The notes: a model not told the origin generated them from the letters alone. A DNA stretch of 38,682 nucleotides from Psammoneis japonica (GCA_008632985.1 QPGO01000180.1:97332-136013), one strand, 5' to 3'; shown: positions 1 through 30,349, counted from the first letter of the stretch. Program-made: numbers and translations.

Positions 1-16
1 CATCCAGTGCACCATT

Positions 17-932
17 GTGAAGCGCATCCTCGAGCGCCAAAATTTGAAATCAAATTTTGAAACTCAACTGCCGAGCCAACTGCGGAATGGGCTGCCGAGC
101 TTGCTCATGCATGCCCAAGCCCAGCTCCTCTACAAGTTGAAAATTGAGACCCCGATGACCTCCGATGCATTGGACATGATCAAGGAAGTGACATCATACA
201 TCCAATCAACTCCAGACCCATGGTCGGGCACCGACAGGATGCGTTGTCCCTCGGGTGCCCCACTGCCAAGCAATTGGAGACACCAGCAACGTCGGCGGAG
301 GTGCCTGTTGCTGCAAGCTCAAATTTTGGTTCGCTTTTCTTTGGGGACCAAAAATCGCAAAGGGTCTCAGGCTGCGGAAGTCAACGGATCTGGACTGTGT
401 CCATGTCAATGCAGTGGAGTTCATTGTCATCATGCTCAAGTTGGCAGCCATTGTCGTTTGCATGGAGAATGTGACTCCAGAACGGGCGCATGAGTTCTTC
501 CGGGACGGCATCGTCCCACTGCATCTGGTCATCAGAAGTTGCTCAGATGACATGGCATCAGTCAACCGGACAAACAAAGCCACTTCGAAGTCGCCACAAG
601 GGCAGCGATTCATGTGGGTTTTTTGTGAATTGCTGCATCATGCGCGTGCAAACCCAAATGGCGATCACATCTTTGGCAACGAGAATTTTGTCACAGATGA
701 CATCTCACGACCTTCTGTTTTTGCCCTGATCTCGAATCGTCACCATTCTGAACAGCTGTTTCGGAAGCATCCCTTTCTGAAGACCTGGGACTGTTTCCAG
801 CCGAGTCAAGAGCTCTTGCAGCTCCTCTCCTCACAGCTGTCTGCCAAGCACAGAACGGCACCCCAGATCCCAAGCAACTTGGGACAGCTTGTTCCCACCA
901 AATCCATTTCCTCCACTTTTACAAGAGTGTGA
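17..932 (+). pseudogene. DIRS-type RT/RNase H C-terminal region, degenerate
   Basis: ORF 255..932 has GDTSNVGGG, HVNAVE, SDDMAS and HIFGNENFVTDDISR, matching DIRS RNase H motifs (DAS..G.G / HIN.LE / DN / HIPG..N..AD.LSR). Apparent frameshift near 225 relative to ORF 17..493. Confidence 0.75.
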
Positions 933-2010
933 GGTGGGATCTAGAAGATCCGGAAATGACTGTGGTTGGCAAGGACCTGAAACATTGCCAATTGGTGCCA
1001 GCTGTGCATGCATCACATCTGGCAACCGGGGCCACCCTGCACTGTAAAAATGTTTCTACAGGTGCCATCAAGGAACACATCCACAACGTCTCCACGTTCG
1101 TGTCTCTGTTTGGTTCCAACTGTTGGGACGTCCGCAAGGACAACAGTGTGGACACCAAAATGGGATGGATCCTCAGGGGAGCATTTGATGAACTCCAACG
1201 GCACGACAAGGTCCCGGACCGACGTGAGTCGTGTGCATTGCTTGTGCAACAACATGCAACTTCAACAGCAGCAGACATGCGAGAAACCGACCCCGACGCA
1301 ATTGAGGTGGTCCTCGCTGACTGGTTTGAGATCGGCCCAATGGCAGGCCTGTGCAGTGTTGAGTGGGCACAGTCCAATGACCACTCAGACCTGGAGAATC
1401 CCAGGCTCAACATCTTCAAGGAGACATGCGCGTTCTGCCTCGATGATGTGCGCATTGAGACCAAGGACAAGCACCAACACTCTGGGGCTGATTGCCTCAC
1501 CCCCAAGCAAGATGACATCGAGAGCATGTTTGTCACATTTCGAGACCAGAAGAACCAGCAACATGGCGAGGAGTGCCAGCTCGCCTTGAACCTCACGGGC
1601 ACTCACGACTTGGTCAAGCCAATGCTTTGCGTGATCCAATGCTTTGCACGGGTCCGTGGTGAAGATGACAAAACCTGCCCCCTGGCACTCTGTTTTGATC
1701 CCAAGGAGAACAAGTGCCGCCTTGTGACATCCAAGAAAATTGAGGCCCGCGTGCGCCAAATTGCAGCAGAGGTGTGCCACCTTGACCAGGTCAAGGATAA
1801 AAAGGCTGTCAGCAAATGGTCAGCACATTCCCTCCATGTTGGAGCCTGCAACATCCTCCATGAGATGAATTTTAGTGCTGAGCAGATTAATCAGCTGCCA
1901 AGATGGCGATCCGACGCCTTTGTGGCGCACCTCCGTAACTGCTTGGGTCTCTCTCAGGCCCATTGCCGAGCCCTCGATAAAGCGGCACCTGTGCCGTTCT
2001 TTGACCAACT
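929..2010 (+). pseudogene. tyrosine recombinase with mutated catalytic residues
   Basis: GLCSVEWAQ (expected first Arg, TGC at 1352), SAHSLHVGAC (H-x-x-R box, CAT at 1835) and RWRSDAFVAHLRN (catalytic Tyr position, CAC at 1928). The ORF track runs on to 2191, probably through a lost stop codon, so the 3' end is approximate. Confidence 0.8.
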
Positions 2011-2280
2011 TGTTTTCTTGCTGTTGATGTGTGTCTGTTCTGCGTTCGTCCTCTCTGTGCGATGTCATTTGCACACTGTCGTTTTTCTGCATCAGACTTT
2101 CAAAATTGAAATTTTAAAATTTCATCCTAACTCCAGATTCGTGTGCCACATTCGAGAGGAACATTTGTCTGTTCCTCATGTCAGAAGATGATCTTTTTTT
2201 TTCCGGTTGGCTCTGCCTCCGATGACATGGGCGCTGTTGCAATGCTTGCAGCATTCCGCGTCGGCAGCATGGTCTGCACA

Positions 2281-2527
2281 CACAGTGAAAAAGGGAGCCA
2301 TCACTTGGCACTGGCGATTCCAAGCCCAGCCCCATGCCCCAATTGCTTCACCTGCTGGCGACTGTTTTCATCGTGGCAAACACTGTGAGTCTACATGCGG
2401 ACATGAACATTGCGTGTGTTCCAGACAACATCCATGTGACTGCATCGATTGACAAGAGACACTTCCACTGTGCCGTGTCATCGGAGTGCAGACAGCCGAG
2501 GCGGAGGCAGGGAATCCGCAGGATTCT
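2281..2527 (+). repeat. direct repeat copy B1 (TpA-depleted)
   Basis: Aligns end to end with 2768-3018, from cacagtgaaaaaggga to ggattct. Confidence 0.92.
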
Positions 2528-2767
2528 CGTAGCCAAGACTCCAAGCCAAGCAAGGAGAGGACCTCCTTGACTGGACCGAGAGTCACCGCGTGAATGTAGT
2601 GGCAAGATGGGTTGAAGGATGGACAACGGACGAGACGAGCGGAAACGAGGCCAGCCCAAGGGATCCCTCATTGTCTGGCAGGATGGGAGACACCATGGCA
2701 CTGTCGAGGCGTCTCCAAGGAGATGCCAACGATGAAAATTGAAAAACCCACCTCTCCCTCCCCTGCA

Positions 2768-3018
2768 CACAGTGAAAAAGGGAACCAATTGCTTGGCACT
2801 GGCGATTCCAAGCCTGGTCCCACACCCTAATTGCTTCACCTGCTCTAGCGACTATTTGCCATCGTGGCAAACACTATGAGTCTATATACGGATATGAACA
2901 TTACGTATATAATAGACAGCATCCATGTGATTGCATCGATTGATAAGAGACGCTTCCACTGTGCCATGTCATCGGAGTGCAGACAGCCGAGGCGGGGGAA
3001 GGGAATCCGTGGGATTCT
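2768..3018 (+). repeat. direct repeat copy B2 (distal part retains TpA)
   Basis: Aligns with 2281-2527. Confidence 0.92.
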
Positions 3019-3205
3019 ATCCCCCCCGAACCGATCCTGCAAAAGACATACGATTTCCGGTGATTAACTTCTACTAACGGAAACAAAGCATGCAACAGTG
3101 GGGGAAGAGATAACAATCCCCCCATCGACGTATCGGAAGCCTCTCGGCTCTCGGCACATGACAGAGAGGGGTGATAAGCATAATACACCTCACCTCAAGG
3201 AAAAG

Positions 3206-4113
3206 ATGGATGACCTTTCGCATCCCTCACCTCTTTTTCGTAACCTTACTAGGGCTATTCTTCACGGGACTGCGGGAGATGTGCGACATGCCCTGCAACT
3301 AGGCGCTAATCCCAATTCGACGTCTCCTGACAATTATGATGTCTCACCGATTTTCTTGTCATGAGCTCTCCGAGCATAAACGACCGTGACGAAAAGATTC
3401 AGGCGTTACTGGACGCTGGAGCAAGTTTGGCAAATAGTGAGCGCTACCGTGAAACACCCTTTCACTTCGCGTGTAAGCTTGGCTATGTGTCAACCGCACA
3501 AATTCTACTGACAGCTGGTGCCCGAGTTGACGAAACAAACAGCAATGGCGACACTGTTTTGCCTATTGTCATCAATTTGGATGTGGAAAGGCAGCGTGAT
3601 ATTATTATGCTTCTTTTACGGAATGGGGCAGACGTAAATGCAAAGACAAGTTATGGGCATTACACACCGCTTCACTTAGCCGTGATGCGTGGGAGAGTTC
3701 AGACGGCTCGCACGCTTTTGCAGAATGGAGCGAGCGTGAATGAAACGGATGAAACTGAATGCACGCCGTTACACTGTGCCAGGGGAGGCACGGTAAAGTT
3801 GCTGCTCGAACACGGGGCCGACGCAAATGCTCTCGACGAGCGTGGCCGCACGCCATTGGATCGTGCAATCTCAAACGGAAGGCGCCACGAGACATCAATT
3901 ATCTTGGAATTTCTGAGCAAGCAACTGTTGACACGAGACAACGTACACCCTTGTCTATGGGCGCACGTGTTGGCCAGGGTAGGGACGAGCAGTACGGACG
4001 ACTCGACTGTGAGCCTTTTTTACTCGTTGCTTCAAGATTTGCCAGATCTATTTGCTTTCAGACATGCTGGTAGGAAAAGGAAGCGACCCGATCATTTCGT
4101 TCCTGGTCTATGA
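3206..4113 (+). CDS. ankyrin repeat protein (apparent 1-nt frameshift near 3352-3360)
   Basis: ORF 3361..4113 has TPFHFAC, TPLHLAV, TPLHCA, GRTPLDRA and LL..GADVNA repeats plus a C-terminal RKRKRP NLS-like motif. The upstream ORF (MDDL...LQLGANPN...SPIFL) supplies another ankyrin repeat in a different frame. Confidence 0.85.
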
Positions 4114-4374
4114 AGCGTCTGGAATGGGTCGTTATGCTTCTGTTGCTTGGTGGGGCATTCCTGGCATACAATACAGAGTAGTATTATTGTCTTGCGGCAG
4201 AGATCACTTTCCGACCATCTTATCCTGGTCGACAAAGGAGGAGGCATGGTCGAAACAAAATGTTGCGTATTTCAAAGTTGAGTAACGTTTGTTCAAAAAT
4301 CTATAGGGTAGACTGGAAAAGTGAATAAGTAGATTCTGTATCTTCGTGCCGTAAAGGCTACCTTTTAGAGAGAG

Positions 4375-5364
4375 CTATTCGTGAAGTCCCATCAGACGGG
4401 CTTTTTCTAGAAGCAGCTTGTATTGTAGTACCGTTGGCATGTCAATCATCAGGCCTTTGAAGCTAAACGCACCCTTCCCTTCCTCTTGGTGCTCTTCAAA
4501 GGCATGGACGACTTCCGATGCATGTTTGATTGATTCTTCTGTTGGTGAGTACGATTCTTGCACCGGCGCAATCTGCGCTGGGTGTATAACCTGCTTTCCA
4601 GAAAAGCCTTGCTGAAATGATCTTAACGATTCCCTAACCAGCTGCTCTTCATCTCGAAAGTCAATCTTTACAATATCAATCGATGACACGCCGTATGCGG
4701 CCGCATGCATCAAGCAATAGTTTCGAGGAAAGTCCAACTCATCATTCGACGTTGTTCTAGTGGCACCCACAGCGGACGCGTAGTCGTCGCCTCCAAAAAT
4801 GACAGCATCCATTCGACTCGGACACGCCGAGCATATTTCTTTCATGTTGAGCATGGCCTGTGGTGATTCAATCATGGAAACGATACGTACATCGTGTGCA
4901 CGGTCACCCAAGGCATCAAGGTGCTCTGCTACACGAAGGACTGTTTCTGCAGACTCTACTTTTGGTATCACAATACCATCTGGTAGAACTCTATCAGTAG
5001 ATTCAGAGCGAATGGTAAGACGACGAAAGCAACTCTTCGGTGACTTGATAATTCGTCTTGCTTTTCGGGACACTCACTTGTTCTGTACAACAGCTTCCAA
5101 GTCTTTCTTTGCTAGATCACCTGTTTCAAACCCATTAATTCTCACCAATCGTTCTGTCCGTCCAAAGTCAACATTATTGAGGGCCTGTAGAATCCCTTCT
5201 CGGGCGTCTTGCTTTTTGTTCAGTGCCACGCCATCCTCCATATCCAAACAGGCACAGTCAAGGGTTGGATGAGACGAAGCTTTGGCTATCTTGCGAACAT
5301 CAAAGCCTTGCAGATACAATAGAGCACGACGAATTCTCGGGGCTAGTGTTGCAACAGCCGACAT
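4375..5364 (-). CDS. HpcH/HpaI aldolase / citrate lyase beta-subunit-like (CLYBL/CitE family); exons 5364-5078 and 4990-4375, 300 aa
   Basis: RRALLY, CLDMEDGV, RLVRIN, IVIPKVES, MIESPQA, IFGGDDY, GKQVIHPAQI and MIDMP motifs. The GTGAGT...TAG intron 5077-4991 joins the two ORFs in frame. Confidence 0.92.
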
Positions 5365-6011
5365 GGTAAAACTAATAAAGTGTCTACCGTGTGTATTCTC
5401 GTTCTGCTATCGCCGCCATGCATTTGGCATTGGCGATGTGGGCGACGGCAAAAAACAACAAGAAAAAAGATCCAGAATCCAGAAAAGATTCGATGAGGTC
5501 GCGGATTTGATTCTGCGCACGCGATCTCAGAATAGAACGCTGGCAGATGGGCTGGACCATGCATGCGAGAGCCTTCATTGTACCGGCATGCTACCGGCAG
5601 ACCTAAGTCGTCAGGGCGAGCGGAGAGTATGGCTCTAGAGCCTCTACTCTAGCTAGACCTGGCTATAGAGTATAGAGTGCACCTACCTTATGCTTTATCA
5701 TCAGCATGCCAGAGCACAAAGCGATAATTGTATTTATCTAGCTACACTCTAGTAGGAATACGAAGTTTGCAAGAAATTGGAAATTGCCATTTCTGTCTCA
5801 TCAAGACCACGAGGACGTCAGTTCTCAACACGATTCGATGGAGCTCGCCACGAGGTACTAATTGCTGTCTATAACCTTCGGCGAAGAGAAAGAATTAATC
5901 GAACACGAAGTTGACTAATTTTTCTTTCATGCGTCACACAACATGGATCCTTGACGAATGACCCTTTCTTCCACTCATCCAAGTACACAGTACAAACTTG
6001 CCCCAATCCTT

Positions 6012-6965
6012 TCATACTTCAATGACATACCCATTGGCCTCAGCGTGTTGGAATTTCTGATTGACAATCTCTTCACAGCTCAAGGTTTCGGCCACTTGGA
6101 CGAAACCGTCCTCGCTTTGCAGGCTGCTCTGTTGACTTGCATTAGTTTCTGGTGTGGATGCATAACTCCTCGCTCCACTCATCTGATTCTCCTCTTTATA
6201 AAGTCTTGTAATGGCCAATATACTCGTGCCAAAGTTCTGATACCGCTTCTCCTTAATTCCGTTGCAGGCCATGAGCTGTGATTTCGTTTGCGGCAGGCGA
6301 ACAGTAATGTCATCCAAGGTGGTATCGTTGAAGATACAATAGGGTGCCACATCTAGTCTATCCGCAAAGGCCAATCGTAATTGTCGCAGGCGTTCTCTCA
6401 GGCCTTTGCGGTTCTGAAGGAGTCTAGCCCGTTCCTCCTTGATGCGAGGATCAGGCAGCGCAAGATCTGCTTTGAACGAAGCAGAAACGCAGCGCTCGTG
6501 GTAGTAGAAACGGCTGTATCTATGATACCTAGGAACAAAAGCCATTTTTCCGACTCTCATTTCGCCTTTGAGAATCGGTTTCCCGCACTGGCGGCATTTT
6601 GCTTGATTGTTCGGAGAAGGTTCCAAAGTGTCGCTACCGGCTCTGACTTGCCTTGAGGGCGATGGACTGCTGGAATATGCAGACTCGCTCTTTACAACAG
6701 GTGACGAGGATGCAATGTGTAATGATGAAGATGATTGAGAGGAGCACACGACTTGAGACGCTGGCGTTCTCAGAAACTTGGCAACGGCCTCTTGCGCGTC
6801 CGAAAGGCATGGAGGTGAATACACTGTTTTGATCCCACTCGAGCCTTTCACTTTTGGCCCCTTGATCTTGCACATCCAATGACCCTCTTTGGGGCCGCCC
6901 GTAGCCCTCACAGGCTTAATGGTTCCATGATGGCCGCAGTTGGTTTGGAAGGTGAAGTCGGTCAT
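6012..6965 (-). CDS. PARP-type zinc finger + HRDC domain protein
   Basis: EPSPNNQAKCRQCGKPILKGEMRVG...YHERC (zf-PARP) then LRQLRLAFADRLDVAPYCIFNDTTLDDI...LPQTKSQL..CNGIKEKRYQNFG (HRDC). Single 317-aa ORF. Confidence 0.85.
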   Translation of the reverse strand: MTDFTFQTNCGHHGTIKPVRATGGPKEGHWMCKIKGPKVKGSSGIKTVYSPPCLSDAQEAVAKFLRTPASQVVCSSQSSSSLHIASSSPVVKSESAYSSSPSPSRQVRAGSDTLEPSPNNQAKCRQCGKPILKGEMRVGKMAFVPRYHRYSRFYYHERCVSASFKADLALPDPRIKEERARLLQNRKGLRERLRQLRLAFADRLDVAPYCIFNDTTLDDITVRLPQTKSQLMACNGIKEKRYQNFGTSILAITRLYKEENQMSGARSYASTPETNASQQSSLQSEDGFVQVAETLSCEEIVNQKFQHAEANGYVIEV

Positions 6966-7273
6966 GGTCTTGTTTTTTTCTTCGCCCTCTGCGTACCGTA
7001 GTCATTGCTTCTTTTTCTCGCCGCCGCCTGTTATTCACGCACAGGCGAACGCGCGACTTGATCGCGCGGGCCAGAACGGCTGTGCGTCGTACGTCTGAAG
7101 ATGTGCTCCGTCCGTCCTCCGCCAGTCGCTCGATCCTCTTTCCGCTGCGATGCGATGTGGCTGATGGCCGCAGCACGCAGCATGGGCCATGGCGTATTAT
7201 ATCTCTTTTTAGCGGCAGCCACCTCTTCCACCCCCACAACTGCAAACAAACAAAATTCACAAACTAGTGTATT

Positions 7274-9150
7274 ATGAATAAATTGATTGGACTGATAGCC
7301 GCTTTGGCGGTCCTGACAAGAACTCGTTTTGTCAACTCGTTTGTTGTGACAAGCGCTGGACGACGACCTGCTTCTTTGCAGCATGCCGCAAGCCGAACTA
7401 CGTGCCGTCGAGCTACTGTAGAATCAGACAATACCGCTGATGCGATAGCTACATCTCCACTGGAGAAGAACGTTTTGGAAAAGATGTCTTCCAATGCAAA
7501 GGCCGCTAAGGAGTGGGGAGACATGTTTGATTTGCCGGATGAGATTTCTTTCTATGCTCTTTTTGCTGCTCTGCGGGAAGGAGCTCAGCTTGGACTCAAG
7601 GGAAAACCGCTCGTATTGAGAAAATCCGATATAATCAAGAGTATTCATGATGTTAGTGATAAAGGTGTTGAAGGATACTTTACGATGGAAGATTTGGAAA
7701 CCGCTGTTACCGAAGACTTTTTGGATGCGGATCGAGGATCAACCGACAATCGGAAAGGCTGGACGGTCCAATCGGTTTCCACTCCTCGTGGAAATTCCTT
7801 TGAAGAGGCTCGGATGACCTTTGAAGAAGTGCAAACTGCTCTAGAGAAGGGTACTGTTATCTTTAATGCATGCGGCGCTCACATTCCAAAGATGGCCGTG
7901 CCACCTTGGCGTGCACCGATGCTACCAGTCTTCCGTGTGCGGCCAACCTCTACGTGACGGCATCGGGGAAGCGCACCAGTGCTCCACCACATACAGATCG
8001 TCAGGATGTTGTGGTTGTACAGACATCTGGAAAGAAGCACTGGCGTGTCTATTCGCCACCAGACCCGTCTCTCAAGCCATCAGCGGACTGCTATGCGCGA
8101 GGAAAGTGGACGGACAATCTGCCCCTCTATGCACTCGAGTCAGAGATGGGTTGTGAGCTCTTGTTGGAAACTACTCTGGATGTTGGTGACGTGTTGTTCA
8201 TTCCAGCAGCTTTCCCACACACCACCGACACGGTCCATCCGGACTGCGAGGATAGCAAGGATACCAGCATCCATCTACGTTTAACTTTGAAACTCACGTT
8301 TGGGATCTCGACTATCTGAGTGCACGAAGGCTCGCACTCCGTCGCGCCTGCGTCTCTGACTCTGCCTTGGGACAAATGAGTGACGAAGAAAACAAATACG
8401 TTGGAAAGGTAAACATGCTGCCATCTCAAGTGAGAGACGATTTGTTTGAAGCGCTCCCTCTTGGGCTGTTGGAAAATGATGAGCAAGGAAAGGCGCTGTT
8501 GGACCAAGCAAGCTCTGAACTAGAGCGTATTAGCAAGGCTGTTGATCCTGAGACGGCGGCTGCGGTGCCGAGTAGCGTCTGGAAAGAAACAATGGAACGG
8601 CTTCGTCAACAGGGTATGGAATTGTTTGACATTCATCGGGACATGTACTTGGCCGCCATTGAGGAAGGAAGAACACGAGAAGCTGAGGATGCCATGACGG
8701 CGCATTTAGATAAACCAAAAACAATGACTGAGGAGCGAATGCGTCGACTGAATGTATTTCGAGTGCCACGATTCTATGATAAGGTGACCGAGAGTAAGCA
8801 ACAACTTACCGAGTGGTCGTATGCTGGCAAGCCAGTCGATGACTCGGGTACCGGAAGCGCAAGCGCAGCCCTACCAGAAAATTGGGCATTTACAATGCCC
8901 ATCAAGGTAGGAGATCAAGTGAGGCTGACCTTGGAGGAGCTTCTTTCCAGCTACAGTGACGAGAGCATCAGCTGGCGGCTTTGACGTTCAGTTCTTTGAC
9001 GGGGATAAGGAGACTGGATTGGATCGAAGTATGCTCAGGCTATTAACGCCACCAGCAGACCCCGCGGCTAGTAATGTTGACACTTCTGGAATGACAAAGA
9101 AGCAACTGAAGCGCTGGAAGAAACAACAAGAAAAGTTAAACAAAAAGTGA
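7274..9150 (+). CDS. JmjC/cupin 2-oxoglutarate oxygenase (RIOX/NO66/RoxA-like), probably plastid-targeted; several apparent frameshifts
   Basis: ANLYVT...APPHTDRQDVVVVQTSGKKHWRVY and LDVGDVLFIPAAFPH give the H-x-D...H metal ligands. Hydrophobic N-terminus followed by VNSFVV resembles the ASAFAP motif. Pieces 7274-, 7870-, 8367- and 8956- lie in different frames. Confidence 0.8.
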
Positions 9151-9229
9151 ACGCGATTCTTAAGTCATGCATTTTTAATCAGTGACTTATTAGTGTACAC
9201 GCATACTATGAAATAATGGCGGCTTTCTC

Positions 9230-10390
9230 TTAGTAGATCTCCGCCGTCAAATTCCCTTGACTCTGTAATTCATTTTCGTCCCCTCCTGCGTCGAAAAACA
9301 TGTCTTTTGTCAAAGAGTCCTGCGGATCTCTCCCTACTGGCTCAGTCTCCGCTTTTGCCGGCCAAAAGGAAAAACTGGTGCGACTTTGTTCGCTAACGTT
9401 CATCTCTTCTTCCTCCGGAATTTTGGATACACGTCGCTCTACGTCCACAGGAGCAGCCACCACGACTGCCTCTGGTATTTCGTCTGTTTCTGCGACACTA
9501 TCGTGGTAATTTGACGGCACCGAGTCGCCCTCCTCATTTGCTTCAGCGTTTTCTTCATCTTCTTCGTCCTCTTCTTCATCATCATCCTTATCTCGACGCC
9601 AGAAAAATAAAAAGGCAAAGAACCCTTGTTTTTCTTTTTCCTCAGGTTCTTCCTCGATCTTTTTGTTCTTCTCCTTTTTCGCACGAACAAACATAGGCTC
9701 TGGTTTCGGTATAACACAAAGAAAGAGACTTACAACAAGATAGCATGCGCAAGACGCAACGGCATAGGCAGCTCCAATTTCAAAATCGCAAGGATACGAG
9801 CCCTTTCCGAGGGATTCTCCCGGGTTTTGACTACGGTAGTAAGCGAGCATATCATAAACTTGATGATGAGCAAAGCATACGGTACTTGTTCCATACTGTA
9901 GACATAAAACAGCACGTCTGATAATATCGGACCACAAGATCCAGTACTCACCAAAAATCACTTGCAAACAAGAATCCGGTAAGAGATATACCGACCGCAG
10001 CAAAGAAGAACAGTGTGCATTCTGCACAACGAGCGCCCTTGAATCGACAGCACGTAAACTCTATCAGCAACAAGAGCAGCCCGGCAAGCCCAATGCGTTC
10101 CCAATGGCAATCCCGATTCGACCCGTCGTCATCTGCCAGCTAAGATCATCTTTTTCTTCATCATTCATGTTTCTGCAGCTTTCGCCTTCCAATTCAATTT
10201 TGAAGAGACCCAAGTTCCCAGACGTCACATTTCTGCCCCCAAACTCAAAGTTATCGTCATTAGCCGGTTCCAGGCTGAACGTAGTAAATTCGCACGTTAG
10301 TAATGCCAAAATACTCAGCACTAGAGCAGCAATGGCTGTGGTCAAAATTAAAACTCTACAGTGAACGCAAGCGACATCACGGGACAACAT
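9230..10390 (-). CDS. multi-pass membrane protein with acidic C-terminal tail (claudin-like topology); exon structure unresolved
   Basis: TM1 (LILTTAIAALVLSILALLTC), GNLGLF..C loop, further hydrophobic segments (IGAAYAVASCACYLVVSLFLCVI) and an E/D-rich tail, across ORFs 10064..10390, 9730..9954 and 9230..10027. Confidence 0.6.
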
Positions 10391-10926
10391 AAAAAAATTG
10401 TGTGAGATCTACTCGTGAAAATCACGTGATTGATGAGAATCACCCTCGAGATAACTCACTGGACCCAGACTTTACAATCCAACATACAGCTTTTGCAACA
10501 TCCCATGTTAGAATCCTACACTGCAATAACAAGGTGCCATGGACGACGGCTTTGCGACTTCAACACCCAAACTCGGACACTCGCCCTGCCTTTGGAAGCG
10601 TTGAACATGATACCGGTATATGTGGCAGGTGGCAGGTGGCAGTCATCAGTCAGTCATGTCAAATGATCAGATAACGGCACGGACATTCTCAGTGAAATTT
10701 ATAACATATACTACATTGGTAATATAGGTGAGTTAAAATGATATCCACATTTTAAAATAAGACGAGTTCAATGAATATATAAATAGCCTTATACAAAATT
10801 TGTGGATATTGAATTTCCAAAAATCAAAGATCCAAAATCTTCAAACATCACAAGAAAATCGAGAAAATCTGAAATTCTGATGAACCTGCCAGCTGCCAGC
10901 GCTATCAACGAGAGAAACGAGAAACC

Positions 10927-12492
10927 ATGGTAGTTACGTCATTGGAACTCCTCTTTACCGGAGCAGGTCTATCGCTGGGCTCGTTGTTTCTGTATCGTTT
11001 CGTATTCGCCGATAGCAATAGCGTCAGAAAGAAGAAAAACAAAACCCTGCCTCCGCTTCCTCCTGCTGGACCGTCTCTGTCCGTGTTTGGAAAGGAAGCT
11101 CAAAGCTGCCGTCTTGCTCGGAATCAAATTCCTTGGGCGCAACAATATGGAAAGGTCTACACTATTTTCTCTCCCTTTACTGCTGTACTGCCAAACATTT
11201 GTCTTGTTGGCGACGTGGCTGTTGCCAAACAACTCTTGGTGGCTGAACAGTCGGCTCGCACCTTTACGTCTCGCGATGAGAAAGTGGCATGGGCCACAAG
11301 ACAGGGAGAAGGGGCGTCCCTCACGGGAATGCCCATGGGAGAGGAATGGAAATGGCGCAAGACGGCTCTTCTGAAAGAGTTTCACAAGAGGCGCATGGGA
11401 GATTCAGAGCGCGGCCTCTTGCCTCAGGTGGTGCAAACCAGTCACGTCTTGTGCGATCGGCTCCTCAAGGTGTCAGAGACACAAGAGCCTGTGCAAGTCG
11501 ATTTGATTACCACACAAATTGTGGTTGACGTGATTCTCTTCTTCATGTTTGGACGATCCATAGAATTTGATCCACAAGTTTTTCGAGACAGCGCACAAAC
11601 CATGCTCGAAGTGGTATTTCATTGTGCCATGAATCCGTTCCATTTCCTCTTACGGTATCTACCTTGGACCAAGTGTTATGCCATAGTTCGCCGTCGAGAT
11701 GCTGCTTGGAAGGCCGTGGACGATGTTATCCAACCTGAATTAAATCAAATCATTCAAGAGATTGATAGTCAGCCACCACCAGAAAAGATCAATCGAATGC
11801 CGGGTTCAGCCATGGCCTCGCTGCTATCCACTGAACCACGCTTTCGGGCGGGAGGAATGGATTCCTTGTTGGCCGACGCTCGGGTCTTTGTCCTGGCAGG
11901 CTTTGAGACTACCGCACACGGACTGTCGTTTGCCTTTGGGCTCTTGGCAACGCATCCAGAGATTGCCAATCAAATTGCCAAGGAGGGCAAGGCGGTCTGG
12001 AACTTGTTGGAGAGCGAGTCCGCGGACGATATTCAAGACGCATTGGACCAAGCGCCAACGGCACGGCTCTTTTTTGCCGAGTGTATTCGACTCTATCCCT
12101 TGGTTCCCACCTTGCCGGGCGCAGTCTTGCAAGATGTGACTGTGACGACTCGTCAAGGTGAGGTCTACGGCTTGCCAAAGGGCACGCAAGTGCTCTTTAC
12201 CAATATGGTATTGAATAGGCAAGAGGGCGGCGACAAGGTCAATCTGAGCCGCCCTCCCGATCAAGAACAGTTCTTTAACAATACCTTCAACACGGGGACA
12301 CACGTGTGCCCCGGTAAGGCCCTTTCGTTGCTGGAAGCCCACGTGTTTTTGCTCATGGCGGCAACCAAATTCGAATTTATTCTTCCGCCCGCGATTGGAG
12401 ACGAAGAAACAAAGAACCATATGGATTTTATGGATCACGTGTTACTCAAGCCCAAAGAGGGCATGCCTCTAATTGTAAAAGAGCGCGTGTAA
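10927..12492 (+). CDS. cytochrome P450
   Basis: N-terminal TM anchor, PPLPPAGP hinge, WKWRK C-helix, AGFETT I-helix, ECIR (ExxR) and FNTGTHVCPG haem-Cys motif. Intronless, 521 aa. Confidence 0.95.
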   Translation: MVVTSLELLFTGAGLSLGSLFLYRFVFADSNSVRKKKNKTLPPLPPAGPSLSVFGKEAQSCRLARNQIPWAQQYGKVYTIFSPFTAVLPNICLVGDVAVAKQLLVAEQSARTFTSRDEKVAWATRQGEGASLTGMPMGEEWKWRKTALLKEFHKRRMGDSERGLLPQVVQTSHVLCDRLLKVSETQEPVQVDLITTQIVVDVILFFMFGRSIEFDPQVFRDSAQTMLEVVFHCAMNPFHFLLRYLPWTKCYAIVRRRDAAWKAVDDVIQPELNQIIQEIDSQPPPEKINRMPGSAMASLLSTEPRFRAGGMDSLLADARVFVLAGFETTAHGLSFAFGLLATHPEIANQIAKEGKAVWNLLESESADDIQDALDQAPTARLFFAECIRLYPLVPTLPGAVLQDVTVTTRQGEVYGLPKGTQVLFTNMVLNRQEGGDKVNLSRPPDQEQFFNNTFNTGTHVCPGKALSLLEAHVFLLMAATKFEFILPPAIGDEETKNHMDFMDHVLLKPKEGMPLIVKERV

Positions 12493-12822
12493 TGTGAAGT
12501 TTTGATTTTAATAAGTTTTCTTGTGCTCCCTCCCTTGTTGTTTCTCCCCCCAAAGTCTTCGCAATTACCATTTATTGCTCGAAGCAGAGCGTTCCTGAGA
12601 TCGCACCCACGTCTCGGACATTGTTTGCAGTTCAATTGAGAGCGACTCTCCCCAACTTCTACCTACTGCTACTCTAGCTAGAGCTAGAGAGAGTAGCTAG
12701 ACGACTCTCTACATACTCTCTACTCTACGATCGCATCTTAGAAATACTTCCGTCCGTCTTCGTCCGGGCAGAAGATTTTTGCGCGCATTTTTCTCTTACT
12801 GCTGCGCTCACAACGAACGACC

Positions 12823-14872
12823 ATGGCTCGTCGTCGCAGCACCCGCTCAAGACTTGCCGCCGACAATGGTGGCGACGAAGACGATGCTGAGAGGGGACGT
12901 CGTCGCAGCACCCGCTCAAGACTTGCCGCCGACAATGGTAGCGACGAAGACGATGATGAGAGGGCGAGGCTACCCGCTGCTATGCGTGAGCGTAACCGTG
13001 CCGTGGCGGAACGAGAGGCGTCTCGTTTAGCTCGTCCAGAGAAACGAGCTGGAACCACCAAACTTTCTCACGCGTCCCGTAAAAAGAGTGCCGTGGCTAG
13101 TACACCGTTTGGATACCACGCCAAGATTTCGGCATCCGAAGAGACGGGCAACGAAGAGACAGAATGGTGTGGTCCTTTTAGCGTGGCACGTCAAATGATT
13201 GCCAAGCGAGAAGAAGCGCGGCGTCAGCGGGAGGAAGAGCAAGAGGAGAAAAATGAGCCTCATCATCCTCTGGACGACGTTATGATGCAAGTCGAATTGG
13301 AGAAGAAACGCAAGGCTCATCCGTCGCTGCAGTGGCGTGCAAAGTTTTCAGACGACCATGATGCTTCTGCGAATCTCTATTCTAAGAGGCAAAAGAGACA
13401 GCAAGCGCAATCTCGGGATCTCGACAAGATCCCTTCGTTGTTCAAGATTTGTCTTGATTTTGTGGTGAAAAATTTCGAGTACGTTGAAGCCCTGGGAAAT
13501 GTCGACAGCGCGATCCGCAGTGCAGTATGTAAGGAGTTGGTAGCTAAGAACAAGTTGGATGCAGCTGCTTTCCAAGCAATCGCCGAAGCTGGTATCGAGG
13601 TACGATGCTTCTGCACTTGAAGATGTTGCTGTGTGTTCTTTTCCTCACATTCATTCATACTGCCACCCCCGTTCTTGTTTTTAGACATTAGAGTTGATCG
13701 ACTGCTCAGAAATCAGTCAAGAACTGCTTACTAGCTCTCTAAAGTCTCTTATTCCCGCAGGATTGCGTTTTCTGGTGCTCAACCACTCTGGGCGATGTTT
13801 TGGCCCAAAGGCTGTCAAGGAAATCGTTGCTCTCTCGAAAGAACAGTCCATGCTTTATGCGGTATCTATTGGAGGAGCTTACTTGCTAAAAGATGATGAT
13901 GCAGCATCCTTCATCTCTGCTACAGCGTCGAGCCTCTCCTCCTTGGAGTTCAAGGCGTGTCCTCTTCTTGGAAGCAGCTTTTGCAACGCTCTTAACCAGA
14001 GTTTTGCATCGCCCAGCAACAATTGCCTGTTGGAACTAAACCTGGAAGACTTGGTTCTTACCAAAGAGAGTCTCATTGGATTATGCTCGTCAGACGCATT
14101 ACGGAATCTAAAAAGTCTGGGTTTAAGGCAAATCCCGGCGGTCGACGACGAAGTTGTCTTAAAGATTCTAGACTCTGTAGGAGACAATCTGGAAGCAATC
14201 GATTTGAGCGACAACTATATTCTTACCGACGAGATTCTTTCTGGTATTCGGCGCTCCAACGAAAGCGGTGGACTCAGAAGTTTGCACCTCTGCGGGCTCA
14301 AGAATCTTACGGCTGCGGGTCTGGAGGCTCTCTTTACTCACGGCATCTCTGGCTTACCGAGTCCACCAATGGTAAGAACTACAATAGCCACAGCTCCCAG
14401 TCTTTCATTCGTTGGATGTGCTGACTTTTCGTTTCGTTTCCCATAGCTTCGAACCTTGCATTTGACAGGATGCGCCTTTGATGCCGTTACTGATCAAGTC
14501 ATGGATCTCGTTTCAAAGGCGTCTTCAGGGAACCGCAACGATGCAAGGGCGCAAAGCGGAGCAATGTCCTCGATAGGTGGACTTGTGCATGTTGGCATCA
14601 ACGGGTCATCATGCACAGACGATACAATGGAGTACTTGGCCGCCACTTCGGCCTCGTCGTTAAAAGAGTTGGATGTCAGCTTTTGCCCAAACGTTACAGA
14701 TAAGGGAATGGGATATCTCGTATCCAAGACACCAAACTTGACCAAAGTTCACCTTTGGGGTTGTGCACAACTGAGCGATGAGTTTTTAGACGGCCACTGC
14801 CGAGTCGGAGACTCTAGCTTTCAAATCATCGGGGCGTGGATGAAAAAGGCGGGGGCTCGCTCACTTCGGTAA
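12823..14872 (+). CDS. RNI-like leucine-rich-repeat protein, Rad7-like; exons 12823-13599, 13685-14371, 14447-14872 (629 aa)
   Basis: WCGPFSVARQMI and IPSLFKIC motifs followed by cysteine-containing LRRs. GT-AG introns 13600-13684 and 14372-14446 join the three ORFs in frame. Rad7 assignment is from recalled motif resemblance. Confidence 0.8.
12829..12957 (+). repeat. intragenic tandem duplication encoding RRRSTRSRLAADNG[G/S]DEDD twice
   Basis: cgtcgtcgcagcacccgctcaagacttgccgccgacaatggt occurs at 12829 and 12898. Confidence 0.9.
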
Positions 14873-14999
14873 AGGGATGCAGTCTTTTGAGTGGTTCACC
14901 AAATACAATGAAAACCAGTAGTGTCTACTCCAGATAGTTTTTAGTTTCTACTTGTGTTCGTTTTACTATTTGCAAACAGGGAGAAAGACTCCCAAAAAA

Positions 15000-17900
15000 T
15001 CAGAGCTCCTTGTCTTCGTCTACTGTGCTCGTTGCATCGCTGGGGCTTTCCTCGATGTCTTCTTCCTCCAAAATATACGGCACATACAACCATTCTATCA
15101 CCGCATCGACGTTAGAACATCTCGTTGTCACGACTTGCTCCCCCTCCCATTCGCTTAGGGGTGGCAACTCGTCCGCGGCCTTTGTTGTCACGGGTTTCGA
15201 CTTTTTATTTCCTAGGTTCTTCTTTTTGTCTTCTTCCCATTCTTCCTCGTCACGGTCTCCCCTGCCATGCACCCCAAGGCACAAGTACGGTTCCTGATCT
15301 TTCCCGCTTTCTACTATCCTCTTCACAATGTACCGTGGGATTGTGGTGTGCATACTTCCGGCAGGCGTCATGTTGCCGTTGCCGAACGATACAAATTGAT
15401 GCCAACGTCGAATGCACGGGAAGACTTGCAAGTCACCTCCAGGTTGTGTCCGCTCTGATTCGCCGTCCAAGCACCTACCAGCACGCATTCCATCCACCTG
15501 CTTGAGCATACACCGTGGTCCTATTGGGCTAAAGATACCTTCGGTCATATTCATTTGGCCAGTTGGGCTAGGACAAGAAAAGGAAAGATAGATTTCAGAA
15601 AAAACTACGGGAACCCATCACAGGAACATACATTCAAGACTCACGTTCGTTCTAGAGAGCCATCCGAACTACACGGACCAATCTCCCAGCGATTATGTAG
15701 TAGTGTTTCTTCTTCAATGACGGCACCAGTCTCCCAGCCTGGCGCAAGTGTGCTTGGTACCCAGGAGTGAAAGCAAGGCACAAGTCGAAGCTGTAGAAAA
15801 AACGCAAGCCAAATCAGCCAAAAGCAAAAAGCCAAATAAAGGAAACACGCAGAGGCCTGTTCCTACCTTGTTTCCGGTGTCTCCAAGTCCAAGGCATAGG
15901 GGCTTGTCGTTCTGTACCGTTTCTTTGGCCAAGATCATCACGCCGTGCTCTGTGAAGCCACTCTCCGGTCCTTCACATTCAAAGGTAGATCTGTTCCCGA
16001 TTTCAGTTGTTCTTCTTCTTTTGCTCGATGTATGTCAAGATAGTCCTTGATTTTTGAGTCGGCTGAATCAGAGAACTTTCGTGCAAAGAGGTCTTCCGAG
16101 AGCTCCAAAACATCAATGTAGTCCACTGTCATTGTCGTTGGTGATCTCCCGCAATGGTCTGGTGAAGGCATAAGGCATTTCCTTTCATCTCGCTTCCCTT
16201 GCTCCAACTCACTTTCCCACCTGACAAAGGAGAACAGGGAAAGCGTGAGGCAATTCTAAAAAAGCCTTCGTTCACGGAAGTGCCACGAAACTTACCTGTC
16301 GAATTGAAGATGCAAAAAGTTCGTGTTGTGGTGCTTGTGACAGAATGGAGTATTCCTCAAAACAGTACCGAAAAAGGTCTCATCCGCAACGACGACATGC
16401 TGAACGTACTCGAGATAGTCGTGGACTAGGGTCCCCGGGCGTGCCTCGGCAATGTACTTAGTAAACTCTCGACTAAAATGAACCACTGACTGGATGTGTA
16501 GAGATCAATGCTTCCCTGTTTCTCAGTCATGGGCTCGAGCCGATAGATTCTATGCACGGCGTCATCGCATTCTACAAAGTAATGCCAATTGTGCGGGTGG
16601 ATCTTGCTCGGTTTCATAATTACGTTCATCATATTGGCATCGAGAGGGTATGACGCAATGCGCCTCCGAATCTCAGTATTAGATGCGATTGGATACGATG
16701 ATGCCGCAATGTGTACCATCTTGTGGAAATCAAGTGGCTCCGAATGCGCCTGATCAACTGCAAAAGCGTATTTAAAAGCTTGTAAGGTGGCATTCACCAT
16801 AGAAAATCCGCCCCAGTTGACTCTCACTCGATATGGATGCTGCAAAACGTGAACATGATCCCTCGAAGCGGCGTACTTTGTAAGTGTCTCTTGTACCTCA
16901 TCACTGCTCTCCTTGCCATCCACATGCACAACAAACACGTGGCCCTCTTCGTACAGTGCTTCAATCAATCGAATAGTCGCAGCCGCATCGTCGTGCGTCA
17001 ATACAGCATAGCACAGCTTGAGGTTGGCCGGGTCGTCAATGTATTCAGCCTCATCTCGCGGTGGCTGGTATGTTCTGTTTTGAATATGCCCAAAATGCAT
17101 GCCTTCCGGCAAGTTATCAAGGTCATATTTGGTTTCATTGCATTGGTTTTCAAACGAAACGTCGGCAAATGGAATGCTGTGTTCCGTCCCAAGAGCATTG
17201 ACAAAGTATCCAAAGTGCTCACCAATCAATGCGCGACACTCCCTTGTCTTAGCCTTTTCAAACACCTTAGTCATTCGCTTGTGCAACTAGAAAATGAAAA
17301 AGTAGTAATATGTGAGGGAAAACAGCAATGTTGCAGCTTGCAGGGCCCTACACAACAAAAAAGAGGCATTGACTAACTCACAGTGGCTCCAATACGGCTC
17401 ATGACTTGTCTCGCCGCCTCTGCTGGATCGTCCACTCCCAAGTCTAAGTCATGTAAGTTCACCAAAGTCCTTTGATTTGTCCTGGCATGCCGTGTCAGAC
17501 CATTGACTCCCGTCTTTCGAACTAGAGTAGAACCATCTCCGCCGTCATGGCCTTCTTCCAGAACAAACTCAAGTCCATCCTTGACACGCATCACTTGTTT
17601 CGGTTGAGACGTCATGACAAAGCTATTCATTCGATTACAGTTATCCTTTGTCGAGCCACAGCATTTGCTCAGCACATTGTGTACTTCAAACTTGTGTCCC
17701 TCGTAGGAATTCAGAGGCAACGAACCTCCGGGCTCCAACCGAGGAGAGCTCATTTTTGTCGTGTCGCCATTGGCGGGATTCACCCAAAACACTTCCAGCA
17801 TACAGGGACTGTCATTGATAAGTGTCAAGTGAACCGGATCCTTTTCAGAGGGAGGAACTGATACCTTCTTGGCCGTCACAACAAGGAGATTGGATGGCAG

Positions 17901-18131
17901 CAACCAACAGGCAAGCAGAGCAATGACAAACTTGAACGCAAACAACGACGGAATATTTTTGCGCCCTGACTGTTTCATCTCATAGGATAACTTATGCTGA
18001 AACACTGTGCAGTATTCTGTAGACATAGACGTACTTCTTACACCGTTGCCGTCGCCTTCCATCATGGTTCCGCTCGTTTTATTTCCTACCGGTACTGTAT
18101 GTTGCTGTATGTCTGTATGTCGTCTCGTCAT
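15000..18131 (-). CDS. core-2/I-branching (GT14) glycosyltransferase, xylosyltransferase-like, multi-exon; start codon uncertain
   Basis: YAVLTH, FVVHVDGK, RVNWGGFSMVNATL, SSYPIASN, SSQWFI, ADETFFGTVL and FARKF are GT14 motifs. N-terminal TM plus INDS..LEVFWVN...NSYEGHKF domain; Cys-containing ricin-B-like C-terminal repeats. Apparent 1-nt frameshift near 16478. Confidence 0.85.
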
Positions 18132-18601
18132 TGCGCGTCCGCCGTCGTCCGCCCGCAAAAAAATCGCAAGGGATAAAACGCGCACGTCTGCATGTGCGTC
18201 GCAAAGCATGGCGCATCGCGACATCCTCCCGGCCATGTGAACAGCCAAAGCAGAGCTGCAGGCAGAACATTGCGATGAGCTGCCATGTGGTAGAGCTGAA
18301 CATTCCTTGCTTATGTTGCATGGCACATGACTGGACTGGAATGCAAGTGGAAGCCACACGCCTCAGAAGAGCTCCACGTCTTGTCTCCTCGCTTTCAAGC
18401 CACCCAACAACAGCTTCGAGCTCTGGCTCACAGCTGCAAGGGCGGGGACAACCAAACAGACCAAACACACAATGACAGTCAAAAATTGTTGCACATGAGC
18501 CAACACAGTTGCACAAAAGCCATTCCAGGGTGAGACACCACACACGACAATTGATCAGCATCACAAAATTGCCGACGACTCAACTGCAATCCTGTTTGCA
18601 C

Positions 18602-21600: not shown

Positions 21601-21837
21601 GAGGGAGTGCATGGTCAAAATTTCGTAAGTCCGCCGTGCGGATGCGCCACATGGCAATGACCCATCCTGCGACGAGAGGGAGAGTTGGACAAATGCTGTG
21701 TGATGATGCTGTGCACAACACATGCCCAAATGTGTGTGCGGAGAAGCGACTCAACAATTAGCTGAGTGGCAATTTCTTTGCCTCTTGGGTTGTTGAGAAC
21801 CTCCCGTGCTCGTCAGGCAGTGTGCAGCATTCTGAGT
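18602..21837 (+). repeat. tandem array of ~415-420-bp units, interrupted by a TIR element
   Basis: Units start agttg(g/a)acaaatgctgtgtgatgatgc at 18602, 19023, 19436 and ~21682. The array breaks at 19773 and resumes in register at 21582. Confidence 0.92.
19774..21581. mobile_element. 1.8-kb TIR element with GG termini and 8-bp TSD (Merlin/IS1595-like ends; no transposase recognised)
   Basis: 28-bp imperfect TIRs 19774-19801 and 21554-21581 (19/28 match, ggca...gtcc...aggtggctc). TSD TAACCCAT (19766-19773) / TGACCCAT (21582-21589). Neighbouring array units show the empty site. Confidence 0.8.
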
Positions 21838-22173
21838 TGCACAACTCGGTTGCGGACCGCAATCGAAATGACTGCAATCTGCTGATTGTTTGCATCACAT
21901 GGACACAAGGATTGCAATCATGTTTGTGATCGATTGCAGTCAAGTCATGAGTGAAATTTAGTCGTGAGTCCAGGACATTTTCTGATCAATGAGGCGAACA
22001 CGGGACTGACAAGAACCGAGCGCGAGAAACGAGAACAACAGATCAAGGGTGAATTTTGGACAACATGCCCAAAAACAAATGAAAAGTCTCAATGAGGTCT
22101 CATAATTTTGGAGCAATGACCGATTGACGCGCCATTTTCATCTGGTCATTTGGTTTCTTTTTTGAAGAATGCA

Positions 22174-26516: not shown

Positions 26517-27560
26517 GCAGCAGACAAAATGCAGACAACAAGCAACAGAGTCCTCAGTGCTGAGCCAGCAGTCTCATGGTGGGCATCAATTGTGTGTGTG
26601 GGGGGCATTGCCATGTAGAAACATGAGGGGTGATGGTGGTGCTGTTTTGGCTCACAACAGCATGTTGTGTTTTGCAGGTTGTTTTGCCAGCTGCATCACA
26701 GTGCATGGTTCAAAAAACAGCTGAAATTTCAGCTCAACAGAGGAGAGCTTGCCTCATTTTTGTTGTGCTGCCTTTTGCTGGGTTTTTTGCTCAAAAATCA
26801 AAAAGTTCCCTTGGCACACAGGGGCTGTCATTGACGAGTGGGGAAAAATGAGCTGAGTCTTTTTCAAAAGGAGGGGCTGACACCTTCTTGGCCATCACAA
26901 AACAGCAAAATCAGGTGGCACCAGCAGCGCGGCAAGCTCTGGCTGTTTCATCTTGTGGGGTGACTCATGCTGGAATGCTGTGCAGCACTCAGCAGACACA
27001 GATTTGTGCTTCCAGCAGACAAAATGCAGACAACAGGCAACAGAGTTCTCAGTGCCAAGCTGGCAGTCTTGTGGGCTTCAATTGTGGGGGACAATGCCAT
27101 GCAGCAGAAACGTGAGAGGGGTGGTGGTGGTGTTTTGGCTCGCAACAGCATGTTGTGTTTTGCAGATCATTTTGCCAGCTGCACCATGATGCATGTGAGC
27201 TGGTTCAAAAAACAGGCTGGCATTTCAGCTCAACAGAGGAGAGCTTGCCTCATTTTTGTTGTGCTGCCATTTGTTGCTGGGTTTTTGTGCTAAAAAAATT
27301 CCCTTGGCACACAGGGGCTGTCATTGATGAGCTGCAAGAAATGAGCTGGATCTTTTTCAGAAGGAGGGGCCAACACCTTCTTGACCATCACACAAAACAG
27401 CAAGATTGGGTGGCACCAGCAGCCAACAGGCAAGCACAGCAGCGCGGCAAACTCGAGTGCAGACAGAGCCTTTTTTGTTCTGGCTGTTTCACCTTGTTGT
27501 GGGCGGGTGGCTCATGCTGGAATGCTGTGCAGCACTCAGCAGACACAGACTTGTGCTTCT
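26517..27560 (+). repeat. two diverged tandem copies of a ~500-bp unit
   Basis: cagcagacaaaatgcagacaac at ~26517 and ~27013; shared blocks tttcagctcaacagaggagagcttgcctcatttttgttgtgctgcc and ctcatgctggaatgctgtgcagcactcagcagacacag. Confidence 0.85.
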
Positions 27561-30206: not shown

Positions 30207-30349
30207 ACTGTTGTAATTTATCCTTCTGGTGACTATTTCAGAGCCACCTCAGTCCTCTAAGGTCTGATCCTGAGGCTAAAATAGACAAGCTTGTTATCAC
30301 AATACTTTCTAAGAGTTAAAAGAGAATAATGACTGCTTCCATCATCGGC
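30207..30349 (-). mobile_element. solo LTR-like copy of the copia family at 34619
   Basis: Reverse complement aligns with 34620-34759, with a long identical core, and ends ...ttacaACA. No clean TSD found. Confidence 0.75.

Follow-up and report, generated by a model that had tools for sequence, protein, structure and literature searches.

Direct repeats B1 and B2 at the edge of a TA-depleted domain in Psammoneis japonica: a probable case of TpA-specific hypermutation

Organization of the locus

The window, by which we mean the whole stretch of 38,682 nucleotides of Psammoneis japonica DNA that was analysed (GCA_008632985.1, QPGO01000180.1:97332-136013), contains near its 5' end two direct repeats on the plus strand, named B1 (2279-2527) and B2 (2766-3018). 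The copies are separated by a plus-strand spacer of about 240 bases (2528-2765), and B together with the spacer makes up a unit of about 490 bases that is present in 1.5 copies at the locus. An open reading frame (ORF) for a degenerate tyrosine-recombinase-like protein (752-2188, plus strand, 479 codons) ends 90 bases before B1. We consider it highly probable that B1 and B2 straddle the edge of a domain of TpA-specific hypermutation, in which A:T pairs were changed to G:C at 5'-TA-3' on either strand. The two repeats would then represent copies of the ~490-base unit, placed at the 3' side of a transposon that is present in multiple copies. Nearly all TA would have been lost inside the domain, from B1, from the spacer and from the initial ~60 bases of B2, whereas the last ~190 bases of B2, which adjoin an ankyrin gene, would lie outside it and would have kept the ancestral TA.

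Comparison of B1 and B2

In a self-BLAST of the window, B1 and B2 were aligned with 86.2% identity over 253 columns (E = 8e-79), and over alignment columns 12-264 the two copies differ by 28 transitions, three transversions and four indel columns. Fifteen TA steps start within the right part of B2 (2828-3018, plus strand), and their counterparts in B1 read TG at seven sites, CA at five, and TA, TT and TC at one site each. The first-pass annotation, whose two quoted strings were located at 2382-2419 in B1 and at 2873-2910 in B2, had put the TA sites of B2 that read TG or CA in B1 at about a dozen, and by pairwise alignment they number exactly 12 of 15. When all A/T positions of B2 2828-3018 were considered, a transition to G/C in B1 was found at 12 of 29 positions within TA and at 3 of 72 positions outside TA (Fisher p = 1.1e-5). 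The right part of B2 has 14-15 TA in 191 bases, an observed-to-expected ratio (o/e) of 1.03, whereas the corresponding part of B1 (2340-2527) has one TA in 188 bases (o/e 0.09); the spacer has two TA, compared with 10 expected. The copies also have 26 CA/TG sites in common. Despite the loss in B1 of 12 of the 14-15 TA, the CpG count is the same in B1 and in the right part of B2, 10 each; ten CpG are intact and common to both copies, and two sites differ (CpG versus CpA).

No TA is present in B2 2769-2827 or in B1 2281-2339, and the earliest TA retained by B2 is that at 2828, as had been proposed (~2828); the edge found by a two-state segmentation of the window (2818/2828) falls at the same place, inside B2. 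At four sites, again in agreement with the annotation (about four), one copy reads CA and the other TG (B1/B2 positions 2302-3/2790-1, 2327-8/2815-6, 2335-6/2823-4 and 2519-20/3010-11). Three of these sites lie in the left part of B2 (2766-2827, plus strand). The annotation had described the first ~55 bp of B2 as converted: the lack of TA stood, and the conversion itself, which is not seen directly, is deduced from these three sites, by which we infer that the left part was converted independently of B1.

In the contigs of sequencing run X1, the read depth over B is 657-713, compared with a single-copy depth of ~55, which indicates that other copies of B exist. Metagenomes scanned for a conserved 29-base pattern of B yielded 0 matches. 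One X1 contig of single-copy depth (62) joins position 2276 to 2776, with nine other letters between them and one unit fewer, and copies or alleles with a single B unit must therefore exist.

Direction of the change

Since a comparison of two copies gives no direction, protein families were taken as outgroups for the ORFs of three unrelated transposon proteins in the window. In total, 44 columns with a Tyr consensus were available; Tyr was kept in one of them, Cys or His was found in 35 and Arg in two. With a single Tyr kept, TA was lost and not gained. For comparison, Tyr makes up 1.1-4.9% of the products of the host genes in the normal stretches of the window.

The largest contribution comes from an ORF for a Copia polyprotein, similar to the diatom CoDi elements (34839-38681, plus strand), which has 1281 open codons and continues past the window end. 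A total of 153 relatives were found; among the best 120 of 153, the top E value is 0, the best score is 1391 bits and coverage reaches 99%, and most carry PF07727. All seven organism-named relatives among the matches listed are from diatoms, and it is solely on this ground that the host is called a probable diatom here. The clusters given by an Atlas look-up of the P450 gene carry fungal labels, but as this tool is not intended for taxonomic placement they were left out of account. The RVT_2 match in the window scores 27.3 bits against a cutoff of 31.6 and is cut by the window end. An alignment with 40 relatives of 42-53% identity gave 536 columns conserved at a level of at least 70%, and the 32 conserved Tyr columns read Cys (18), His (8), Leu (2), Tyr, Phe, Ser and Arg (one each), whereas the other residue classes are kept at 74-100%. 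The former Tyr codons now read TGT (10), TGC (8), CAT (4) and CAC (4). The Tyr content of the ORF, 0.62%, is the lowest of the 121 proteins compared (with the best 120 of the 153 relatives), the next value being 2.85% and the median 4.09%. The same specificity can be observed across codon boundaries: a T precedes 4 of the 147 conserved codons that keep an initial A, but 8 of the 14 in which this A has become G. Arg codons of the Copia ORF read Trp, Cys or Gln, in line with CpG decay.

In the recombinase-like ORF (752-2188), Tyr amounts to 0.2% of the residues. Tyr columns were defined here by Tyr in at least 2 of 3 distant relatives, and the nine columns obtained read His (4), Cys (3) and Phe (2), with Tyr in none. 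Four relatives have in common the motif HSLRVGAC...RW...YLRN, which may correspond to the catalytic region of a tyrosine recombinase; in the window, the position aligned with the catalytic Tyr is His (CAC), and HSLR reads HSLH. Pfam Phage_integrase matches one relative only (P0123, E = 0.0037, below the cutoff), and the profile of the family gives a weak match to the Cre catalytic region (E = 0.15), so that the family is named here as tyrosine-recombinase-like, possibly of the Crypton/DIRS type. The closest relative, P0122, has Cys at two of the nine Tyr columns and a Tyr content of 1.1%, and may itself be partly hypermutated.

The third ORF (22572-23141, plus strand) belongs to an unnamed protein family. 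A word-based search for longer relatives found none, and a later exhaustive search found 172. The three Tyr-consensus columns read Cys (2) and Arg (1, residue 57, codon CGT). A former Tyr is thus replaced by Arg at two positions, the other one being CGC in the Copia ORF, and either codon is explained by a change of the two bases of a single TA, with a new CpG as the result. A likeness of this ORF to hAT/ZBED RNase-like proteins was an Atlas lead only and was not used as an identity. No Pfam hits were obtained for eight long relatives of this ORF, nor for the TA-poor ORFs 929-2191, 2-490, 192-929, 752-2188, 22572-23141, 23093-23671, 24686-25213, 32535-33242 and 33541-34098.

The annotation had read B1 as the state after the change and the right part of B2 as the state before it, with TA going to TG or CA. 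This polarity is supported by the Tyr codons of the three transposon ORFs, and B itself would share it by its position at the edge of a domain that has lost TA. The opposite polarity was also considered, in which B1 is ancestral and the right part of B2 gained TA by C-to-T change at CpA/TpG, as in repeat-induced point mutation (RIP). The TA content of the right part of B2 is indeed higher than that of normal DNA in the window (o/e 1.03 versus 0.59), and two copies alone cannot give direction. However, the domain around B1 and two further domains lost TA, as judged from the 44 Tyr columns of three families with one Tyr kept; an ancestral B with one TA in 188 bases has a probability of 0.003 at the background TA density; the RIP indices of the domains are reversed, with TpA/ApT down to 0.02 and (CpA+TpG)/(ApC+GpT) up to 2.2; and 26 CA/TG sites are still common to B2 and B1. 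A gain of TA is therefore, in our opinion, very improbable.

Change in place and further repeat pairs

The CA-versus-TG sites bear on when and where the change took place. Repeat pairs lying wholly within TA-poor DNA have 2-6 such sites per pair, and most of their CpG sites are still common to both copies. Decay of CpG in both copies predicts ~0.05 such sites for B1/B2, and four were observed; as this is too many for double CpG decay, the best reading is that one ancestral TA was resolved independently in each copy. One site of a 413-base satellite reads TG, TG, CA and TA in its four copies. We infer that the change occurs on chromosomal DNA, in place and after duplication. Both strands are hit, as can be observed within the single Copia ORF (Cys 18 and His 8), and the targets are not limited to retroelements, since the non-coding B repeat, the recombinase-like element and the satellite are hit as well.

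These data also bear on RNA editing as the source, in which transposon transcripts would be edited from A to I by an ADAR- or ADAT-type enzyme and the result fixed in DNA by reverse transcription and insertion. A-to-I editing enzymes typically prefer a 5' U, as is stated in a preprint (bioRxiv 10.64898/2026.01.13.699255), and a Copia retrotransposon is among the elements hit. On the other hand, Tyr was changed to Cys at 18 and to His at eight positions of one ORF, which places the change on both strands; satellites, the non-coding B repeat and the recombinase-like element were also hit; CA/TG differences arose between copies once these had been duplicated in place; and the borders cut through contiguous repeats. 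Hyper-editing fixed by retrotransposition does not fit, the changes being confined neither to the transcribed strand nor to retroelements, and we regard this source as very improbable.

Two further before/after sets were found, and in both of them the TA-bearing copy lies outside a domain. The first consists of a TA-bearing copy, C0 (17736-18080, plus strand), just outside the second TA-poor domain, and of related tandem copies in the converted state (26740-27608). C0 has TA at 10 aligned sites, and there the two converted copies read CA/CA at six, TG/TG at two, and CG/TG and AG/TG at one each; since their outcomes are mostly identical, parsimony over C0 and the two copies (C0/T1/T2) alone gives no direction. 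The second set is an inverted-repeat pair, with an unconverted copy at 30207-30354 (plus strand) and a partly converted one at 34615-34759 (minus strand). About 100 bases of the latter are identical to the former, with all TA kept, whereas in its last ~45 bases, past ~34660, all TA read TG or CA, and the switch takes place within ~10 bases.

The satellite (18602-19736) has 2.7 copies of its 413-base unit and a further partial copy at 21573-21837, and its depth in the X1 contigs is 1510-7903, compared with ~55. Its tRNA-like look was not borne out by ARAGORN (0 genes) or Rfam (0 matches). A 495-base tandem pair is located at 26518-27423 in the second domain.

TA-poor domains of the window

The TA o/e of the whole window is 0.36, with a strongly bimodal distribution. 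The two-state segmentation gave five TA-poor domains, which cover 19,673 of the 38,682 bases and have TA o/e values of 0.08-0.13, and four normal stretches with values of 0.53-0.76. Domain 1 (3-2818) has a TA o/e of 0.10, a CpG o/e of 0.62 and a depth of 254-713 compared with ~55; domain 2 (18314-27895; TA o/e 0.08, CpG o/e 0.45) contains the satellite, the tandem pair and a decayed transposon-like gene; domains 3 (30692-31981) and 4 (32453-34536) both have a TA o/e of 0.09; and domain 5 (34773-38673; TA o/e 0.13) corresponds to the Copia-type retrotransposon. Two TA-normal islands, 31982-32445 (464 bases) and 34537-34760 (224 bases), lie between TA-poor domains. The contents of the two kinds of DNA differ: the Copia polyprotein, the tyrosine-recombinase-like ORF, the unnamed transposon-like ORF and satellites were found in the TA-poor domains, and genes for ankyrin, an HRDC/zf-PARP protein, P450, a Branch-type enzyme and a bestrophin-like protein in the normal stretches.

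The difference in composition is confined to a few dinucleotides. Between TA-poor and normal DNA, the o/e is 0.10 versus 0.59 for TA, 1.66 versus 1.14 for CA/TG and 0.51 versus 0.96 for CG (0.45-0.67 in the individual TA-poor domains), and for the remaining seven strand-symmetric dinucleotide classes the gap is at most 0.08. The G+C content is nearly equal (0.494 and 0.481), and the RIP indices of the domains are reversed, with TpA/ApT of 0.02-0.3 and (CpA+TpG)/(ApC+GpT) of 1.5-2.2.

Within 1-20000, the TA-poor bins have X1 depths of 254-713 and 1510-7903, that is, 4 to 140 times the single-copy depth, whereas the bins in 5337-18009 have depths of 43-72; the affected DNA is therefore multi-copy. 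The X1 contigs, with their short-read-like depth of ~55, contain a fraction of 0.71 of 583 words sampled from 22000-27500, which speaks against an artefact of long reads. An artefact of sequencing, of base-calling at modified bases or of assembly is conceivable insofar as the sequence was found in the runs of one study only, which may be the assembly's own data. Against it stand the presence of that fraction of words from the most depleted stretch at short-read-like depth, the homologous sites of nearly identical context at which one copy has CA and its counterpart TG, a pattern that a deterministic error would not produce, and the same signature in an unrelated metagenome contig (L040, see below). 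We regard an artefact as extremely unlikely.

No RNA run was among those listed as containing the sequence. The TA-poor bins are hardly covered by a second run, X2, and this lack of cover was not used as evidence. Its contigs skip 121 bases (9830-9952) and 104 bases (10355-10460) with CT..AC ends, corresponding to minus-strand GT..AG introns, and these intron-like skips suggest that the run, although labelled "DNA?", is RNA.

Target context, CpG loss and reading frames

The retention of TA varies with its flanking bases. The retention of NTAN tetranucleotides in TA-poor DNA relative to normal DNA is lowest for ATAC (0.01), ATAG (0.02), ATAT (0.02) and GTAC (0.08), and rises through ATAA (0.10), CTAC (0.16), CTAG (0.21) and GTAA (0.23) to TTAA (0.40) and CTAA (0.49). 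From these values, the 3' preference of the target A is deduced to be T > C > G > A (TAT > TAC > TAG > TAA). The AA dinucleotide is not reduced in TA-poor DNA (o/e 1.21 versus 1.15 in normal DNA).

A set of 74 metagenomic Copia-related loci (L001-L074) was compared. CpG is depleted (o/e < 0.4) together with normal TA in 26 of them, which indicates that CpG decay of Copia-type elements is common and independent of TA loss. TA is low in a single locus, L040 (o/e 0.12), the others having values of 0.44-0.87. In L040 (1-1644), 18 Tyr of a relative are aligned to Cys (5), His (5), Phe (3) and four other residues or a gap, and to Tyr in no case, so that the process is present in at least one other source.

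A change of DNA in methylated heterochromatin that does not involve a deaminase was considered as well, such as A-to-G errors by a polymerase-eta-like enzyme, biased mismatch repair or a mispairing modified thymine at TpA. The low CpG of the TA-poor domains (0.45-0.67 versus 0.96) would suggest methylation and frequent repair of T:G mismatches there. Polymerase eta, however, targets WA (W represents A or T), and AA is not reduced in the domains (1.21 versus 1.15); 26 of the 74 metagenomic Copia loci are CpG-poor with normal TA; and B1 lost 12 TA and no net CpG, so that repair linked to methylation does not by itself yield the signature. We consider such a process distinctly unlikely.

A consequence of the target specificity can be observed in the reading frames. 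TAA and TAG together occur 170 times in TA-poor DNA and 711 times in normal DNA, and TGA 931 and 687 times, respectively. Because a sense codon can never become a stop codon by a change of TA to TG or CA, the Copia frame has remained open for 1281 codons even though 26 of its 32 conserved Tyr are now Cys or His. TA-free transposon relics keep long open frames in this way and will be called as genes.

Along the Copia ORF (34965-38673), the outcomes at the lost Tyr positions, grouped in runs, read HHHH CCCCCCCCC HHHH CC H CCCCCC H C, i.e. 8 runs compared with 13.8 expected (P = 0.013), a hint of strand-coherent tracts.

The border within B2

B2 switches from the converted to the TA-bearing state within four bases (2824 to 2828). 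There are three candidate causes of this border and of that at ~34660: a guide, by homology or small RNA, that ends there, a boundary of chromatin at the ankyrin promoter, or a recombination joint. In the last case, B2 would be a chimera, in which the switch at 2824-2828 is the joint of a converted and an unconverted B copy, formed by recombination or gene conversion, and not the limit of a process acting in place; a circular recombinase-bearing element that integrated within B is one example. The shortness of the switch, the resemblance of the neighbouring ORF to a tyrosine recombinase, the existence of copies with one B unit (the joint of 2276 to 2776) and the similar switch inside a repeat at ~34660 are all in line with such an origin. 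A joint would nevertheless be needed separately in two repeats, the copy at 30207-30354 is continuous across the matching point, and no joint signature or target duplication was seen. We therefore think a chimera unlikely; it would in any case alter only the meaning of the border, and the before/after reading of B would stay.

Comparison with known systems

The window has the sequence-level features of the TpA-targeted hypermutation described in Bigelowiella natans. In mutation-accumulation lines of this alga (Mettrop et al., bioRxiv 10.64898/2026.01.13.699255), two integrated viral regions acquired 231 new mutations, of which 230 were of the type A>G or T>C and were all located at TpA, and these regions mutate ~1000 times faster than the remaining genome; an ADAT2-like DNA adenine deaminase is proposed as the enzyme, with an ADAT2 homologue as an unproven candidate. 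The likeness extends to the restriction of A>G/T>C change to TpA on both strands, there in giant-virus and virophage DNA, to its confinement to separate stretches of foreign or selfish DNA, the nuclear genome being normal elsewhere, to a low long-term TpA with high CpA+TpG, and to an enrichment of reverse transcriptase and transposase domains among TA-poor predicted genes. The differences are also clear. In Bigelowiella, the process was seen directly as new mutations, whereas in the window it is deduced; the host there is a rhizarian alga and here a probable diatom (a stramenopile); and the main target there is a single-copy viral insert of 186 kb with a TpA o/e of 0.45, compared with multi-copy transposons and satellites at 0.08-0.13 here. 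Edges of less than 10 bases, CpG loss in the domains and a ranking of 3' neighbours are not among the features reported in the sections of the preprint considered here.

Fungal RIP, as known from Neurospora, is similar in being limited to transitions, specific for a dinucleotide, active on both strands and directed at repeated transposon-derived DNA, in which coding capacity is destroyed and the borders lie near repeat ends. In contrast, RIP converts CpA to TpA, so that the DNA becomes AT-rich and TA-rich, and creates stop codons, whereas in the window TpA is converted to CpA/TpG, G+C is level and no stop codon can be made from a sense codon. The window was therefore not classified as RIP, the defining direction having been tested and found reversed. 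Simple duplication would not be a sufficient trigger here, because the right part of B2 and C0 escaped although duplicated (30207-30354 is also unconverted). DNMT4 enzymes, relatives of the RIP factor RID, are noted for many diatoms in a paper on diatom DNA methyltransferases (PMC9998398), which is a lead and not evidence in the present case.

The A-to-G chemistry and the requirement for a 5' T fit the A-to-I deaminases (ADAT2/3, TadA, ADAR), which are known mainly to act on RNA, whereas the change in the window is heritable, affects both DNA strands and is limited to domains. APOBEC3 enzymes are comparable as a deaminase-type hypermutation against mobile DNA with a dinucleotide context, but they convert C to U on minus-strand cDNA, which results in strand-specific G-to-A change in reverse-transcribing elements only. 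The decay of CpG in methylated transposons has also taken place in the domains of the window; it leaves TA untouched, and the two kinds of loss can be separated in other loci and in B1. In full-text literature searches, no report of TA-to-TG/CA hypermutation in diatoms was found, the sole match being the Bigelowiella preprint.

Proposed mechanism and its implications

What the analysis shows is the repeat itself, a change from A:T to G:C that is specific for TpA, limited to domains and present on both strands of chromosomal repeats, and, for three transposon proteins, the direction of this change. As for the process behind it, the odds are in our opinion about even that adenine is deaminated in DNA by an enzyme which depends on a 5' T and is directed at silenced repeated DNA. 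Adenine would be converted to inosine and read as G, with the 3' preference T > C > G > A, and the CpG loss in the domains would be superimposed on this, separately and more slowly, by the decay that methylated CpG usually undergoes.

A more far-reaching proposal, which we put forward tentatively and think rather less probable, is a "mirror-image RIP" in diatoms and perhaps in algae of the SAR group (stramenopiles, alveolates and rhizarians). A guided DNA adenine deaminase would edit TpA to TpG/CpA in place, on both strands and in every copy of a recognised transposon or satellite, and would stop within a few bases of the end of the guide. The guide would be homology or a small RNA, and B1/B2 would mark the exact end of one guided tract. 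As stop codons would never be created, long open "zombie" frames would be left behind.

Several points weigh against the reading of B1/B2 given here. The polarity of B itself is deduced from neighbouring sequence. The right part of B2 has 15 TA, compared with 8.0 expected at an o/e of 0.59 (P = 0.018), and a gain of TA would also yield an excess; in addition, the CA/TG site 2519/3010 falls within the part of B2 that is called unconverted. The 4-base switch is sharper than usual chromatin spreading, and a recombination joint could explain it. The deaminase itself is postulated. Run X1 may be the source data of the assembly itself and hence is not independent support. Finally, the TG/CA skew gives no backing to strand-coherent tracts, since its variance over 200 bases is 1.05 in the domains and 1.48 in normal DNA and is not over-dispersed.

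For TpA-specific A:T-to-G:C hypermutation, we found one earlier description, the 2026 preprint on one rhizarian alga. If the present reading is true, a second independent occurrence in a probable diatom would point to a system spread widely through SAR algae rather than to a peculiarity of a single species. What sets the present case apart is the probable diatom host, the transposon and satellite targets, the near saturation, the edges sharp to less than 10 bases and the accompanying loss of CpG. Natural before/after pairs such as B1/B2 would give the target rule and the geometry of the borders without experiment, and candidate deaminases could be tested in diatoms, which include genetically modifiable species.

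Other features of the window

An ORF at 6012-6965 on the minus strand contains an HRDC domain and a PARP-type zinc finger and resembles a DNA-repair protein. In a TA-normal stretch, a 69-base tandem duplication with 97% identity was found at 12829-12964, within the ORF 12823-13620.

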